A DNA stretch of 5,564 nucleotides from a virus (taxonomy: Duplodnaviria > Heunggongvirae > Uroviricota > Caudoviricetes). Position numbers and translations under genes: made by a program. Of this stretch, positions 3,568-5,564 are shown one piece after another. The DNA lies in the IMG/VR virus record IMGVR_UViG_2681813234_000001, positions 1 to 5,564 of that record; one strand, written 5' to 3'. The notes under the pieces were generated by a model. The model searched no databases. It was not told the DNA's origin and saw only the letters and a list, made by a program, of their open reading frames with translations. Positions within the stretch are counted from its first letter, which is position 1. The number at the start of each line of letters is the position of its first letter.

Positions 3568-3594
3568 AAAGCCGCATGAAGCGGCTTTTAATTT
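3568..3594. terminator. bidirectional rho-independent terminator
   Basis: aaaGCCGCatgaaGCGGCttt hairpin (stem 3568-3575 / 3581-3588) followed by TTTTAATTT on the plus strand and by TTTATTTATT on the minus strand. It ends both the rightward neck operon and the antisense tRNA. Confidence 0.65.
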
Positions 3595-3670
3595 GGTGGA
3601 CACGGACGGATTTGAACCTTCAATCAGCCGATTATGAGTCGGTTGCTTTAACCAATTAAGCTACGCGTCC
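3594..3670 (-). tRNA. tRNA with anticodon CAU (elongator Met or lysidine-modified Ile2 type), CCA encoded
   Basis: Minus-strand read GGACGCG-TA-GCTT-AATTGGTTA-AAGC-A-ACCGA-CTCATAA-TCGGC-TGATT-GAAGG-TTCAAAT-CCGTC-CGTGTCC-A-CCA. Acceptor stem 7 bp (one G-U), perfect D stem, anticodon loop CUCAUAA with U33 and A37, T-loop TTCAAAT. Caveats: one A-G mismatch in the T stem and an A-C at the first anticodon-stem pair. G1-C72 is paired, so it is not an initiator. Confidence 0.6.
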
Positions 3671-3704
3671 ATAAGTGCTGGTTTAAGCATTGCCAGCGTG
3701 CTTT

Positions 3705-3770
3705 CTTAATATCCAGCCCCGTAACCCATACATACCCCTACATATGATTGCGATAATGCTGGATATTAAG
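3705..3770. repeat. perfect 13-bp inverted repeat (cttaatatccagc / gctggatattaag) around a 40-nt loop
   Basis: Arms at 3705-3717 and 3758-3770 are exact reverse complements. A 13-bp inverted repeat within 100 bp is unlikely by chance in 5.5 kb (rough expectation about 0.01). Confidence 0.55.
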
Positions 3771-4045
3771 TGCTGTGGTGGCCGGTGCTGATCTCCGGCT
3801 TAGGTGCGAAACGGCACGGGTTTACGTACTGGATTCGCCGCATTTTTATAGCGCATCAGCCTGCGCATTCACCACAACGGAAAGAGCACTGCGCGGCACC
3901 TTTCACCAAATCCGCGAGGTCTACGTGTTCAATGCTCTTACCTGTTGCGTGCCGGTTACGCGTCCGGCGTCTTTCGACCGCTAATTGTAATTGAAGGATT
4001 GGATGTAATTAAATGAAATCATGGAACCAATCTCTGTTAAATCCT

Positions 4046-4074
4046 AATCTACACCACAAAATAATCACTGTCAA
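4046..4074 (-). promoter_or_regulatory. sigma70-like promoter, leftward (TTGACA-17-TAGATT), candidate promoter of the tRNA transcript
   Basis: Minus strand reads caggtgTTGACAgtgattattttgtggtgTAGATTagg: -35 at plus 4069-4074, -10 at plus 4046-4051. Near-identical architecture recurs at 5440-5468. Confidence 0.45.
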
Positions 4075-4080
4075 CACCTG

Positions 4081-4089
4081 TGATATAAT
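4081..4089 (+). promoter_or_regulatory. extended -10 promoter (TGaTATAAT) upstream of the major tail gene
   Basis: TGATATAAT at 4081-4089, about 27 nt upstream of the GGAG RBS (4116-4119) and ATG 4126. The same gatataatca motif recurs at 5481-5490. Confidence 0.4.
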
Positions 4090-4125: not shown

Positions 4126-4842
4126 ATGGCTATTTGTGCAAATGATAAAGGCGTTCTGGTCGGTCGCATGACCCGACTATTCCTTGCTGAAGGGTGCGGC
4201 GACGCAGTCCCGGAAGCAGGAGACTGGAAGTATTTGGGGTCAACCACCAGTAAAGGCGTTGACTACTCGCCGCAGACCACCACGTCGGAAGCTGATACCG
4301 CTGGCGGCTTTGTTTCCACTCTCGTTACCAGCTCTGATATGACCATCAGCGCAGAGGTTGAAATCCGCAAGAATGACCCGAGCGATGAGTTTGGTTTCCA
4401 TCGTCTTGTTGAGATTTACGCCACTGAACTGAAAGCGCGTCGCCAGCCTTCCTTGTGGGTGCGTGAGGTAACTGGTGCAACTATCGTTACCGCGTACTGC
4501 AACATCACTAGTATCAGCTACGAAGGTGGCACGAACGACATCGTTACTGGTAGCCTTGAGTTCAAGGTTTACGATTCTGACAGCGTTACCGTCGAAAGCC
4601 TTGAGCCTCTGGCATTCACTACCGACCTGCAATCAACTGGCAGCACTGGCAGCCCGTTAACTGTTGCTGTTGAAGGTGGCGTTGCTCCTTACACTTATGT
4701 ATGGCGCAAAGATGGTGTGGTTGTAGGCAGCGAATCTGGAGCAACACTGGCAAGCCCAACCGCTGGCGTGTATACCGTCACGGTAACTGATTCGTCTACT
4801 GACCCTGAAGTTATCCTGAGCACGGCTTGCACCGTATCCTGA
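4126..4842 (+). CDS. major tail (tube) protein with C-terminal Ig-like domain (238 aa)
   Basis: Track ORF; ATG 4126 with GGAG 6 nt upstream. Lies just downstream of the neck/terminator genes. C-terminal ~80 aa (LAFTTDLQSTGSTGSPLTVAVEGGVAPYTYVWRKDGVVVGSESGATLASPTAGVYTVTVTDSS) is an Ig-like (Big_2/PKD-like) beta-sandwich pattern typical of siphovirus major tail proteins such as lambda gpV. Confidence 0.6.
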   Translation: MAICANDKGVLVGRMTRLFLAEGCGDAVPEAGDWKYLGSTTSKGVDYSPQTTTSEADTAGGFVSTLVTSSDMTISAEVEIRKNDPSDEFGFHRLVEIYATELKARRQPSLWVREVTGATIVTAYCNITSISYEGGTNDIVTGSLEFKVYDSDSVTVESLEPLAFTTDLQSTGSTGSPLTVAVEGGVAPYTYVWRKDGVVVGSESGATLASPTAGVYTVTVTDSSTDPEVILSTACTVS

Positions 4843-4849
4843 CAAAGAA

Positions 4850-4877
4850 AAAGCCCCGAAAGGGGCTTTGTTTTATT
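4850..4877. terminator. bidirectional rho-independent terminator
   Basis: aaAGCCCCgaaaGGGGCTtt hairpin (GAAA tetraloop 4858-4861) followed by GTTTTATT on plus and TTTTTCTTT on minus. It ends the major tail gene and the leftward cassette, whose stop is at 4875-4873. Confidence 0.7.
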
Positions 4878-5073
4878 CTTGTGGTGGCTCTGGTGATTTA
4901 GCCCAATGGGTGGCTGGAATGCCGTGACAGCGGTCCAATTCACTAACAAACATCTTGCTGCCAATACTATCTACAGCTTTACATACCGCAGTTCTAACAA
5001 CACCGCGAAATGCTGTAAGAACCATCGCTCCTTCTTCCGGCATCTGATCACTACACTTAATCCACTGGATCAT
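4873..5073 (-). CDS. DUF551-like phage protein (66 aa)
   Basis: Track ORF; ATG 5073-5071 overlaps the upstream stop (ATGA). MIQWIKCSDQMPEEG...VLTAF...THWAKSPEPP matches the DUF551 signature as I recall it (WI-x-D-x-LPE-x-G ... HW ... PEPP). Confidence 0.65.
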   Translation of the reverse strand: MIQWIKCSDQMPEEGAMVLTAFRGVVRTAVCKAVDSIGSKMFVSELDRCHGIPATHWAKSPEPPQE

Positions 5074-5213
5074 ATCACCTTATCCTCATCAAAAATCACA
5101 CCAATCACACGAAGCAAGTCTTTCGCCATACGCTCTGCTTCTTCATAGTCGTAACCAGCATCAACATACAATTCAGTGTAGAAAATCAGGTCAGCTTTTG
5201 TTTGTTCGTTCAT
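5070..5213 (-). CDS. hypothetical 47-aa acidic protein
   Basis: ATG 5213-5211 overlaps the stop of the upstream Imm-like gene (ATGA), and its own stop TGA 5072-5070 overlaps the DUF551 ATG (ATGA). Translation MNEQTKADLIFYTELYVDAGYDYEEAERMAKDLLRVIGVIFDEDKVI (12 acidic, 5 basic). Below the ORF-track size cutoff; supported mainly by this double coupling. Confidence 0.45.
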   Translation of the reverse strand: MNEQTKADLIFYTELYVDAGYDYEEAERMAKDLLRVIGVIFDEDKVI

Positions 5214-5404
5214 TTCTTGTCGCCACTTTTAACCAGTGCCCAAACCAGTGCCGCAACCCACCCAATAAAGCTCCATCCGACAAGAATATTCAGTACGCAG
5301 ATTGCAGTCGTGTTTACGTGCTTGCGTTGCAGCGCCACAAAAGATGGAAGAAGATAAGCAAATATCACCAATCCAGCGAAAAGCAACAAAATAACAACAT
5401 CCAT
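5210..5404 (-). CDS. superinfection immunity (T4 Imm-like) family small membrane protein (64 aa)
   Basis: Track ORF; ATG 5404-5402 with GAGGTGA RBS 5 nt upstream. Two TM segments and the motif AYLLPSFVALQRKHVNTTAICVLNILVGWSFIGWVAALVWAL, which matches the superinfection-immunity small-protein family consensus as I recall it (YFLPSIIA-x-R-x-H-x-N ... LGW-x-IGW ... ALIWA). Confidence 0.7.
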   Translation of the reverse strand: MDVVILLLFAGLVIFAYLLPSFVALQRKHVNTTAICVLNILVGWSFIGWVAALVWALVKSGDKK

Positions 5405-5439
5405 AAATCACCTCACTCATATCTCGTTTCGATGACTTG

Positions 5440-5468
5440 AATCTACATCACCACCTCACAGGTGTCAA
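5440..5468 (-). promoter_or_regulatory. sigma70-like promoter, leftward (TTGACA-17-TAGATT), for the three-gene cassette
   Basis: Minus strand reads ggtggtgTTGACAcctgtgaggtggtgatgTAGATTcaag: -35 at plus 5463-5468, -10 at plus 5440-5445. TSS about 29 nt upstream of ATG 5404. Overlaps the inverted repeat GGTGT-ca-ACACC (5461-5472). Confidence 0.5.
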
Positions 5469-5479
5469 CACCACCGAGA

Positions 5480-5488
5480 TGATATAAT
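5480..5488 (+). promoter_or_regulatory. extended -10 promoter (TGaTATAAT) for the downstream rightward gene
   Basis: TGATATAAT at 5480-5488, about 18 nt upstream of AGGA (5506-5509) and ATG 5518. Confidence 0.4.
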
Positions 5489-5517
5489 CAACATCAGTCA
5501 AATTCAGGATGCAAAAC

Positions 5518-5564
5518 ATGAGCAATCGCACGCCACTAACAGAAATCGGAGAGATGCGCATCTC
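5518..5564 (+). CDS. hypothetical protein, N-terminal 15 codons only (position is consistent with a tail assembly chaperone, but too little sequence to say)
   Basis: ATG 5518 with AGGA 8 nt upstream; an alternative ATG at 5509 is in frame. Open to the window end (MSNRTPLTEIGEMRI...). Confidence 0.3.
   Translation, partial: MSNRTPLTEIGEMRI

Follow-up and report, generated by a model that had tools for sequence, protein, structure and literature searches.

The phage DNA analysed here, a stretch of 5,564 nucleotides that we call the window, carries three small leftward open reading frames between a promoter and a bidirectional terminator, both predicted, and this unit is flanked by the major tail gene on one side and the DUF6246 and tape-measure genes on the other. 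We consider it probable that the unit is a conserved divergent small-gene operon, a moron-derived swap site around the 47-residue product of its second gene (P47), and that its three products work independently. The operon is already known and annotated in Skatevirus-like phages. About 190 GenBank phage records carry P47 and the operon in some arrangement, and Escherichia phage vB_Eco_ZCEC08, deposited and annotated, has the identical Imm–P47–DUF551 arrangement at 90.8% nucleotide identity, so at the sequence level the cassette, which an earlier sequence-only reading of this DNA put forward as an undescribed system, has been described. The sequence is already public, and nothing in the locus would surprise phage specialists.

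Layout and predicted signals of the operon

The window belongs to a Skatevirus-like virulent siphophage and is 93.8% identical to Shigella phage Sf11 at the operon. The three leftward frames that the sequence-only reading had described are all present, chained by ATGA stop/start overlaps at 5210–5213 and 5070–5073 (Table 1), and a coding check of the window found support for each of them (family matches and, for P47, dN/dS). An Rfam scan returned tRNA-Met as its sole match and no RNA family in the cassette. The left-flank orthologues in relatives carry the annotation "major tail protein". The right-flank fragment matches Sf11 gp19 over 18 residues at 100% identity by tblastn; its orthologues have PF19759 (DUF6246) on record, sit in the tail-chaperone position and are followed by the tape measure gene.

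Table 1 Features of the operon and its flanks in the window
Feature	Position	Strand	Description and support
Gene 1 (Imm)	5210..5404	(-)	64 aa; ORF and PF14373 / phrog_1039 match
Gene 2 (P47)	5070..5213	(-)	47 aa; ORF and phrog_17424 match
Gene 3 (DUF551)	4873..5073	(-)	66 aa; ORF and PF04448 match
Leftward sigma-70-type promoter, predicted	5440..5468	(-)	Consensus match and conservation
Divergent rightward extended -10 promoter, predicted	5480..5488	(+)	Pattern TGATATAAT and conservation
Bidirectional intrinsic terminator, predicted	4850..4869	both strands	Hairpin and T-runs
Left flank: major tail protein gene, C-terminal Ig-like domain	4126..4842	(+)	phrog_853, E=1.7e-85
Right flank: start of DUF6246 gene, truncated by window edge	5509..5564	(+)	tblastn

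The predicted leftward promoter consists of a -35 hexamer TTGACA (5468–5463), a 17-nt spacer and a -10 hexamer TAGATT (5445–5440), matching the consensus at 10 of 12 positions. Such a pattern occurs twice in the window against 2.3 occurrences expected from shuffled sequences, which is chance level. Because the consensus match alone is no better than chance, the case for promoter function draws on conservation: an alignment of 20 relatives, Roufvirus-like Klebsiella phages among them, shows both hexamers unchanged, and the spacer of the Roufvirus-like clade is an unrelated sequence of 18 nt. A second predicted promoter, TGATATAAT, lies back-to-back with the first, facing rightward upstream of the DUF6246 and tape-measure genes. 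The pattern TGNTATAAT is found exactly twice in the window (4081–4089 and 5480–5488), compared with an expectation of 0.17, and the Roufvirus-like clade keeps this promoter as TGGTATAAT.

The terminator hairpin has an 8-bp stem, five of its pairs being GC, closed by a tetraloop and accompanied by a T-run on each strand, and is predicted to serve the major tail gene in the rightward direction and the cassette in the leftward one. It lies just beyond the range of 4873–5468 that the sequence-only reading had given. Both clades retain a hairpin here, each with its own stem sequence (AAAGCCCC/GGGGCTTT versus AACCCCC/GGGGGTT). The promoter pair and the terminator are thus retained across two clades whose flanking tail proteins are about 55–70% identical, and the TTGACA-17-TAGATT promoter, the bidirectional terminator and the self-contained leftward transcription unit proposed earlier are all borne out as conserved sequence elements. 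We infer promoter use, expression timing and co-transcription of the leftward genes.

P47 is conserved at every locus, and its neighbours are exchanged

Around this framework, gene content varies. The operons of vB_Eco_ZCEC08, Sf11, C1 and the Salmonella phages VSt472, seszw and Vi II-E1 have the same promoter, terminator and flanking tail genes as the window and differ from it only in the gene content of two variable slots; Sf11, for instance, has one additional upstream gene. In those records, the assigned functions stop at "superinfection immunity" and "DUF551". We compared 71 related IMG/VR loci, 34 Skatevirus-like and 37 Roufvirus-like, and distinguished 31 operon architectures among them. 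P47 is present in all 71 (with a nonsense codon in one), Imm in 27, DUF551 in 34, an exported 97-residue protein (Exp97) in 21, NinX in 30, DUF7740 in 25 and HNH in 14, and another 24 loci follow the same gene-content pattern. The slots flanking P47 are filled by no fewer than ten further gene families, a methyltransferase as well as Exp97, NinX, HNH and DUF7740 being among the occupants. The conservation of the 47-residue frame in homologous cassettes, which the sequence-only reading had named as a point to check, is thereby established, and this distribution marks P47 as the operon's invariant core.

The earlier proposal that the three genes act together fares poorly on the same counts, since the components do not co-occur as a set. 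An interdependent superinfection-exclusion or inter-phage competition system of Imm, P47 and DUF551 would fit the ATGA coupling, the single promoter and terminator common to all three genes, and the joint presence of the trio in most Skatevirus-like loci. Against it, P47 has no Imm beside it in 44 of the 71 loci and no DUF551 in 37, and some loci have a further gene separating P47 from DUF551 (NinX/DUF2591, or a 124-residue protein in Escherichia phage C1). The ATGA coupling is equally indiscriminate, joining P47 to whichever gene is next (NinX 27 times, DUF551 19 times, and a methyltransferase-like gene too), and P47–HNH pairs overlap by 14 nt. Constraint is uneven (dN/dS of 0.415 for DUF551 against 0.05–0.065 for Imm and P47), none of the three proteins has a significant PADLOC match, and T4 Imm is active alone (bioRxiv 10.64898/2026.03.06.709160). 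Because Imm and DUF551 come and go, the slots hold other genes and DUF551 can be deleted from a viable phage (seszw_220S, below), the trio reading is unsupported, and we judge it very unlikely.

A narrower pairing, in which basic Imm and acidic P47 form a two-gene module with P47 as cytoplasmic partner, chaperone or antidote, has evidence of its own. Where Imm is present, its stop overlaps the P47 start by ATGA in 26 of 26 cases, in both clades and with both the 64-residue Skatevirus and the 99-residue Roufvirus form of Imm; the two proteins are under comparably strong constraint (dN/dS 0.065 and 0.048) and are oppositely charged (pI 9.5 and 4.1). Yet P47 stays intact where Imm is missing, at 8 of the 34 Skatevirus-like loci and 36 of the 37 Roufvirus-like ones, and P47 is confined to this phage cluster, whereas the Imm family is widespread without it, as in T4. 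Because P47 is universal, its adjacency to Imm is uninformative, Imm simply filling the upstream slot. A toxin–antitoxin reading of the operon was rejected. Imm may still depend on P47, because the overlap is found in every such case and in both clades, but we consider the two-gene module as a whole unlikely.

P47 is a real gene of a family without assigned function

P47 is a coding gene of phrog_17424, a family with no function assigned, which it matches over all 47 positions (E=8e-37); the forms encoded by Klebsiella phages match the same family (E=8.5e-12 and 2.4e-17). Most GenBank relatives list its product as a hypothetical protein, and tblastn locates it in 192 phage records. The record of phage Vi II-E1 has an antisense ORF annotated in its place. 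Given these annotations and its own PHROG, the frame does not fall below ORF-calling cut-offs as had been supposed. The description of the protein as acidic and helical stands (pI 4.1; 12 D/E against 5 K/R; an AF2 model with pLDDT 90.8 that predicts a helical hairpin with helices at residues 3–18 and 23–36).

Selection on P47 acts at the protein level. The pooled dN/dS of 0.048 is close to that of the major tail protein (0.054), nine synonymous differences and one non-synonymous difference separate the window from Sf11, and the frame stays open at 42–47 codons down to about 50% identity. Its synonymous divergence (pS 0.29) is comparable to that of its neighbours, with no extra constraint at the nucleotide level. 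That the small frames, chiefly this one, are chance ORFs over a conserved non-coding element would be in keeping with the shortness of P47, its lack of a Pfam match and the antisense annotation in Vi II-E1, but the substitution pattern, the ordinary pS, the retention of the open frame and the Rfam null all speak against it. We rejected a non-coding reading of the cassette on the dN/dS, frame retention and Rfam results, and we give the chance-ORF explanation almost no credence.

Searches of P47 against Pfam, NCBIfam, PADLOC and PDB sequences gave nothing significant, the best match being a SAM-domain-like stretch at E ~1. With the predicted model as query, Foldseek returned only generic helical hairpins from the PDB (E of 2.4 or worse) and only its own family from BFVD. 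An exhaustive profile search recovered about eight real clusters and detected no P47 relatives outside the Skatevirus/Roufvirus-like cluster. Two actinobacterial repeat proteins with an AGYDYxxAxxLA motif were set aside as kin, their E-values of ~4e-4 being too weak.

The neighbourhood of P47 raises another reading, namely that it serves the tail genes, as a DUF6246/tape-measure assembly factor or as a regulator of the bidirectional promoter, which would turn the operon from an accessory feature into a core one. Even the most distant homologues (~40–50% identity) remain directly divergent from DUF6246, in invariant synteny, and the dN/dS of P47 equals that of structural genes. P47 was also kept in 69 of 69 sequenced genome-reduced seszw mutants, isolates that had lost up to 29 of 81 genes each, although such retention is weak evidence, as the seszw study could remove 52 of its 60 targeted genes at the population level (PMC9825161). 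P47 is, however, encoded on the strand opposite to the tail genes, DNA binding is unlikely for an acidic 47-residue hairpin, and Enterobacter phage CobraSix lacks P47 despite having both DUF6246 and a tape measure gene. We find a tail role unlikely, if a little less so than the Imm–P47 module.

Gene 1 is a homologue of T4 Imm

Gene 1 follows a Shine–Dalgarno sequence (GAGGTG, 5414–5409) and is predicted to encode a basic membrane protein of two segments, with hydrophobic stretches at about 1–26 and 33–58, a GRAVY of 1.29 and a pI of 9.5. It matches PF14373 (Imm_superinfect) at 63.9 bits (E=1.2e-17; profile positions 2–42 of 42), well above the gathering threshold of 27.9 bits, in agreement with its earlier description as a superinfection-immunity-type membrane protein, and it also matches phrog_1039 (E=5.5e-23). 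T4 Imm itself scores slightly lower on the same PF14373 model (58.2 bits), and the two proteins align directly with 34% identity over 62 residues (E=1e-11). On this profile and pairwise evidence, gene 1 is a true homologue of T4 Imm. PADLOC models gave it no significant match (a weak 2TM-TIR hit only, E=0.0015), and a search against PDB sequences gave nothing useful.

Expressed alone from a plasmid, T4 Imm excludes T4; the tape measure protein co-purifies with it, and exclusion drops when R33 or W50 is mutated (bioRxiv 10.64898/2026.03.06.709160). Gene 1 shares the small hydrophobic architecture and keeps this arginine and tryptophan, as R27 and W44, in alignment columns that are invariant even in the 99-residue Roufvirus form; its dN/dS is 0.065. 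It differs from the 83-residue T4 protein in being only 64 residues long, without the C-terminal tail. The phages differ as well: T4 is a myovirus, gene 1 is carried by a siphophage, and the tape measure protein of this siphophage bears no relation to gp29 of T4. Unlike T4 Imm, gene 1 adjoins the tape-measure region of its own phage, and by analogy with T4 we regard both its exclusion activity and its target as putative.

Gene 3 is an accessory DUF551 gene

The assignment of gene 3 to DUF551 was correct: its product matches PF04448 at 41.9 bits (E=1.8e-10; positions 1–68 of 68; gathering threshold, 22 bits). DUF551 is a portable domain of phage early and accessory regions with no function assigned (PMC10834534). 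The domain also occurs in variant V2 of lambdoid Ea22 and in YfdS, encoded by the CPS-53 prophage of E. coli, as the C-terminal domain of a larger protein; here it stands alone in 66 residues. Of the Skatevirus-like loci, 32 of 34 carry the gene, compared with 2 of the 37 Roufvirus-like ones. It evolves under constraint about eightfold weaker than that on Imm and P47 (dN/dS 0.415 versus 0.065 and 0.048), and the engineered mutant seszw_220S, which is viable, has a clean deletion of its orthologue (deposited genome; PMC9825161). Gene 3 is thus an accessory gene. Searching it against PDB sequences gave nothing useful. A structure prediction from 14 close homologues yielded an implausible single long helix (pLDDT 68.7) and was not used for a fold search.

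Origin of the operon and a working model

In the outgroup phage CobraSix, the major tail gene and the DUF6246 gene lie 57 bp apart without a leftward unit. The insertion between tail genes that the sequence-only reading had proposed therefore holds on a deep time scale; no genome lacking the unit was found among those of the Skatevirus/Roufvirus cluster that we examined. The adjacency of the flanking genes in an insert-free relative is a hallmark of morons, and the unit resembles morons of tailed phages in having its own predicted promoter and terminator, the opposite orientation and a lower G+C content (~0.43–0.46 versus 0.51–0.54 in the neighbouring tail gene). Sporadic presence applies to Imm, DUF551, Exp97, NinX and the other slot genes but not to the universal P47. 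The unit departs from typical morons in that its phages are virulent, which excludes prophage expression, and from sporadic recent morons in being fixed across the cluster around a constrained core gene. Most likely, as judged from these comparisons, the operon is an old moron-like insertion that has turned into a swap site for accessory genes.

We propose that a moron-like insertion with P47 occurred in the common ancestor of the Skatevirus/Roufvirus-like cluster and later became a landing pad, where accessory genes have come and gone to either side of P47. Leftward transcription by host RNA polymerase would run from the sigma-70-type promoter to the shared bidirectional terminator. Imm, an inner-membrane protein by homology, would most likely guard the infected cell against secondary infection by blocking translocation of the incoming genome, probably by binding the tape measure protein of the incoming phage, as T4 Imm does. 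P47, the lineage-specific acidic hairpin under strong constraint, would most likely act in the cytoplasm by binding another protein, and the DUF551 protein is a fast-evolving accessory domain, dispensable for plaque formation. The three products are most likely independent of each other.

It is possible, though we think it rather unlikely, that the element that has gone unnoticed so far is P47 itself, as a cluster-specific and near-indispensable small protein, rather than the trio. If so, its target might be some protein of the host or the phage, through which it would control infection, for example by binding RNA polymerase or a defence protein, or it might be a cofactor that enables the envelope proteins of the upstream slot (Imm and Exp97). 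P47 makes a small and easily testable target.

Skatevirus-like phages are in development for biocontrol of Salmonella, E. coli and Klebsiella and are represented in the BASEL collection; a working injection block of the Imm type, if real, would alter their behaviour in cocktails. An Imm homologue beside a tape-measure gene also makes a handy test of the T4 Imm/tape-measure mechanism in siphophages, and the locus as a whole offers a natural example of an old moron that has probably become a swap site for accessory genes.

Organization of the leftward operon

Comparison of the region between the major tail protein and DUF6246 genes confirmed the leftward three-gene cassette described in the sequence-only reading, with its open reading frames (ORFs), coordinates and flanks as proposed and ATGA stop/start overlaps linking all three ORFs. 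In relatives, the tape measure gene comes after DUF6246. The promoter and bidirectional terminator suggested for the cassette are present and conserved across two clades, the Skatevirus-like and Roufvirus-like phages, although the leftward promoter match alone is at chance level (2 found versus 2.3 expected). Its −35 and −10 hexamers are invariant across all aligned relatives, and the spacer is unrelated in sequence between the clades (17 versus 18 nt). The back-to-back rightward extended −10, TGATATAAT, is a motif occurring only twice in the window versus 0.17 times expected; its counterpart in the Roufvirus-like clade reads TGGTATAAT. The terminator hairpin is retained in both clades despite differing stem sequences. 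It is on these conservation patterns that the predicted functional leftward transcription unit rests.

Features of the window
Feature	Coordinates	Strand	Remarks
162-aa ORF	618-1106	minus	phrog_1636 (no assigned function)
Terminator of tRNA-Met unit	3588-3568	minus	
tRNA-Met, CAT anticodon	3670-3594	minus	end of second leftward unit
TTGACA-17-TAGATT	4074-4046	minus	second module, putative promoter
Extended −10 TGATATAAT	4081-4089	plus	second module, putative promoter
Major tail protein gene	4126-4842		left neighbour; phrog_853
Terminator	4850-4869	both	downstream of cassette; 8-bp GC-rich hairpin, T-runs on both strands
Gene 3 (DUF551), 66 aa	5073-4873	minus	ORF
Gene 2 (P47), 47 aa	5213-5070	minus	ORF
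Gene 1 (Imm), 64 aa	5404-5210	minus	ORF
Putative promoter TTGACA-17-TAGATT	5468-5440	minus	upstream of cassette
Extended −10 TGATATAAT	5480-5488	plus	divergent, back-to-back with leftward promoter
DUF6246 gene	from 5509		right neighbour; first 18 codons within window

The same motifs recur in a second bidirectional promoter module (region 3568-4089), which would drive a leftward unit ending in tRNA-Met and the 3588-3568 terminator. No feature is called in the ~370 nt between its leftward promoter and tRNA-Met, and relatives carry other tRNAs (Arg, Ser, Ile) at this site. Because of this second unit, we view the tail module as several rightward units with leftward accessory units interleaved.

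P47 is the fixed element of a variable operon

Shigella phage Sf11 shares 93.8% identity with the region, and many phages of Salmonella and Escherichia share ~89–92%. These relatives are virulent siphophages of ~46 kb from the genera Cedarrivervirus, Skatevirus, Deseoctovirus, Segzyvirus and Macdonaldcampvirus, which the BASEL authors unite in a single Skatevirus-like group whose sister is Roufvirus. The cassette genes carry annotation in the relatives' records, and ZCEC08 has the exact three-gene arrangement of the window. As a sequence, the cassette is not undescribed: public records already contain it, along with the gene calls and the family assignments of two of its genes.

We compared 71 IMG/VR loci gathered with a P47 alignment and 24 further loci taken from GenBank or public assemblies. 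Every locus contains P47, and the gene is intact in 70 of the 71 IMG/VR loci. Among 34 Skatevirus-like loci, P47 is encoded by 33 (a nonsense codon interrupts it in the other), DUF551 by 32, Imm by 26, the exported 97-aa protein Exp97 by 21 and NinX by 12. All 37 Roufvirus-like loci encode P47, with DUF551 in 2, Imm in 1, Exp97 in none and NinX in 18; a 50-aa gene (33), DUF7740 (25), HNH (14), a methyltransferase and others also occur there. GenBank Roufvirus-like phages including pYD38-A, BUCT610 and KP591P3 carry a 99-aa form of Imm. From the 31 architectures in total, of which the window's own type accounts for 6 of 34 Skatevirus-like loci, a common order emerges: promoter, an upstream slot (Imm and/or Exp97, or empty), P47, a downstream slot (NinX, HNH, DUF7740, DUF551 or others) and terminator. 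ATGA overlaps join P47 to Imm upstream in 26 of 26 cases and to NinX (27) or DUF551 (19) downstream; this coupling is ordinary operon packing and no sign of partnership.

Constraint is likewise unequal. Pooled Nei–Gojobori dN/dS across Skatevirus-like loci is 0.048 for P47, 0.065 for Imm, 0.12 for Exp97 and 0.415 for DUF551, with 0.054 for the major tail protein and 0.029 for DUF6246. Synonymous divergence of P47 (0.29) is similar to that of its neighbours, so conservation acts on the protein. Between clades, P47 is 53–64% identical versus 52–55% for the major tail protein and ~69% for DUF6246; its divergence keeps pace with that of the flanking tail proteins.

Gene 3 is a full-length DUF551 domain (PF04448, 41.9 bits), as first assigned, a portable domain without known function that also occurs in proteins such as YfdS and a variant of Ea22 (PMC10834534). 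Its protein is accessory, dispensable and fast-evolving: the seszw_220S mutant of Salmonella phage seszw (cassette order Exp97-P47-DUF551) is viable with DUF551 cleanly deleted. None of the 69 seszw mutants deposited in the CiPGr genome-reduction study (PMC9825161) lacks P47 or Exp97, in genomes down to 36.7 kb; this retention is only weak evidence of P47's importance, because that study could remove 52 of its 60 target genes at population level.

Three results contradict the proposal that the three genes act together as one module: their presence and absence are independent, they differ in constraint, and a phage with DUF551 deleted is viable. Nothing in the trio is mechanistically new. A two-gene partnership of Imm and P47 keeps a residual probability, as Imm never occurs without P47 in these loci, but that co-occurrence is uninformative, P47 being universal and remaining intact in the 44 of 71 loci that lack Imm. 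The reading with most support is that of an old moron-like unit, fixed around P47, that is now a site of accessory-gene exchange.

Imm and the upstream slot

Profile searches bore out the superinfection-immunity identity of gene 1, which matches PF14373 (Imm_superinfect) at 63.9 bits (Pfam cut-off 27.9) and phrog_1039 'immunity to superinfection'; with the PF14373 model, T4 Imm (from NC_000866) reaches 58.2 bits. The two proteins align at 34% identity, with R27 and W44 of gene 1 corresponding to T4 R33 and W50 in invariant columns. In a 2026 preprint (bioRxiv 10.64898/2026.03.06.709160), T4 Imm is reported to co-purify with gp29, the tape measure protein, to lose exclusion activity in part as R33A and W50A variants, and to exclude T4 when it is the only gene supplied from a plasmid. 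The Imm of the window would most likely also act alone, stopping genome translocation by a secondary phage, and residual interest lies in whether the tape measure binding mechanism extends to siphophages.

In Skatevirus-like IMG/VR loci (L026-L066), upstream-slot content correlates with tape measure protein length at the neighbouring gene. The protein is <800 aa in 17 of 24 Imm-containing loci and long (816–1097 aa) in 8 of 8 loci without Imm (Exp97 only) (Fisher p = 6e-4, uncorrected for phylogeny). This association may reflect simple linkage or an Imm matched to tape-measure type, the latter being conceivable because T4 Imm binds its own tape measure protein.

Many relatives encode a 97–112-aa signal-peptide protein (phrog_2315; no Pfam match) upstream of Imm or replacing it. 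One is Sf11 gp20 (L001 4161-4454 in reverse-complement orientation, annotated at L001 4838-5131, minus), an exported protein that the window lacks. T4 pairs Imm with periplasmic Spackle, and the exported protein alternating with membrane Imm in relatives may recall that pair.

P47 and its range

P47 matches phrog_17424 over the full length of that profile (E=8e-37) and has no match in Pfam, NCBIfam or PADLOC. Its predicted acidic, helical character held: the pI is 4.1, and the AlphaFold model is a helical hairpin predicted with confidence (pLDDT 90.8; helices 3–18 and 23–36), for which fold searches returned no informative match. P47 is an acidic hairpin that is under constraint and specific to this lineage. 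It most likely serves as a protein-binding factor, and the remaining interest of the locus centres on it.

The one exception to intact P47, L055 (5501-5641; IMG/VR UViG 3300045988_020202), carries a TAG in frame at codon 27 (GAG to TAG). This is either a natural knockout, which would mean that P47 can be lost, or a sequencing error. In Salmonella phage Vi II-E1 (AM491472; L006 1995-2174), an antisense 'membrane protein', VIP0030, is annotated over the locus in place of P47, probably a mis-annotation in view of the conservation of P47 and the purifying selection on it.

Only ~8 genuine P47 clusters emerged when 1.84 billion representatives were searched exhaustively with a profile, and even the farthest (P0012, P0014, P0015) lie directly divergent from a DUF6246 gene. 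Two actinobacterial proteins (P0016 and P0017; 277 and 339 aa) match weakly (E about 4e-4) over four tandem repeats of F-x-AGYDY-x-x-A-x-x-LA-x-x-W, a hint, too weak to interpret, that the hairpin resembles a repeat module from elsewhere. As an unbiased check of range, searching with DUF6246 instead found it at ≥60% identity in 206 phage records versus 192 for P47; a sampled 'missing' genome, VLCpiS13e, carries a P47 homologue, so the gap reflects search sensitivity.

In the distant Enterobacter phage CobraSix (DUF6246 45.7% identical), only 57 bp separate the major tail and DUF6246 genes, and the junction holds no leftward unit. The unit is therefore an insertion older than the Skatevirus/Roufvirus split, which partly vindicates the moron position first proposed while placing the event far back.

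Elsewhere in the window, the 162-aa ORF has 93–94% nucleotide identity to lambdoid phages of the Stx-converting type, H-19B among them. Its 81 matching records include no Salmonella or other recognisable Skatevirus-like phage (26 are labelled only Escherichia phages), and this match pattern suggests that the virulent window phage acquired the ORF horizontally from temperate phages.
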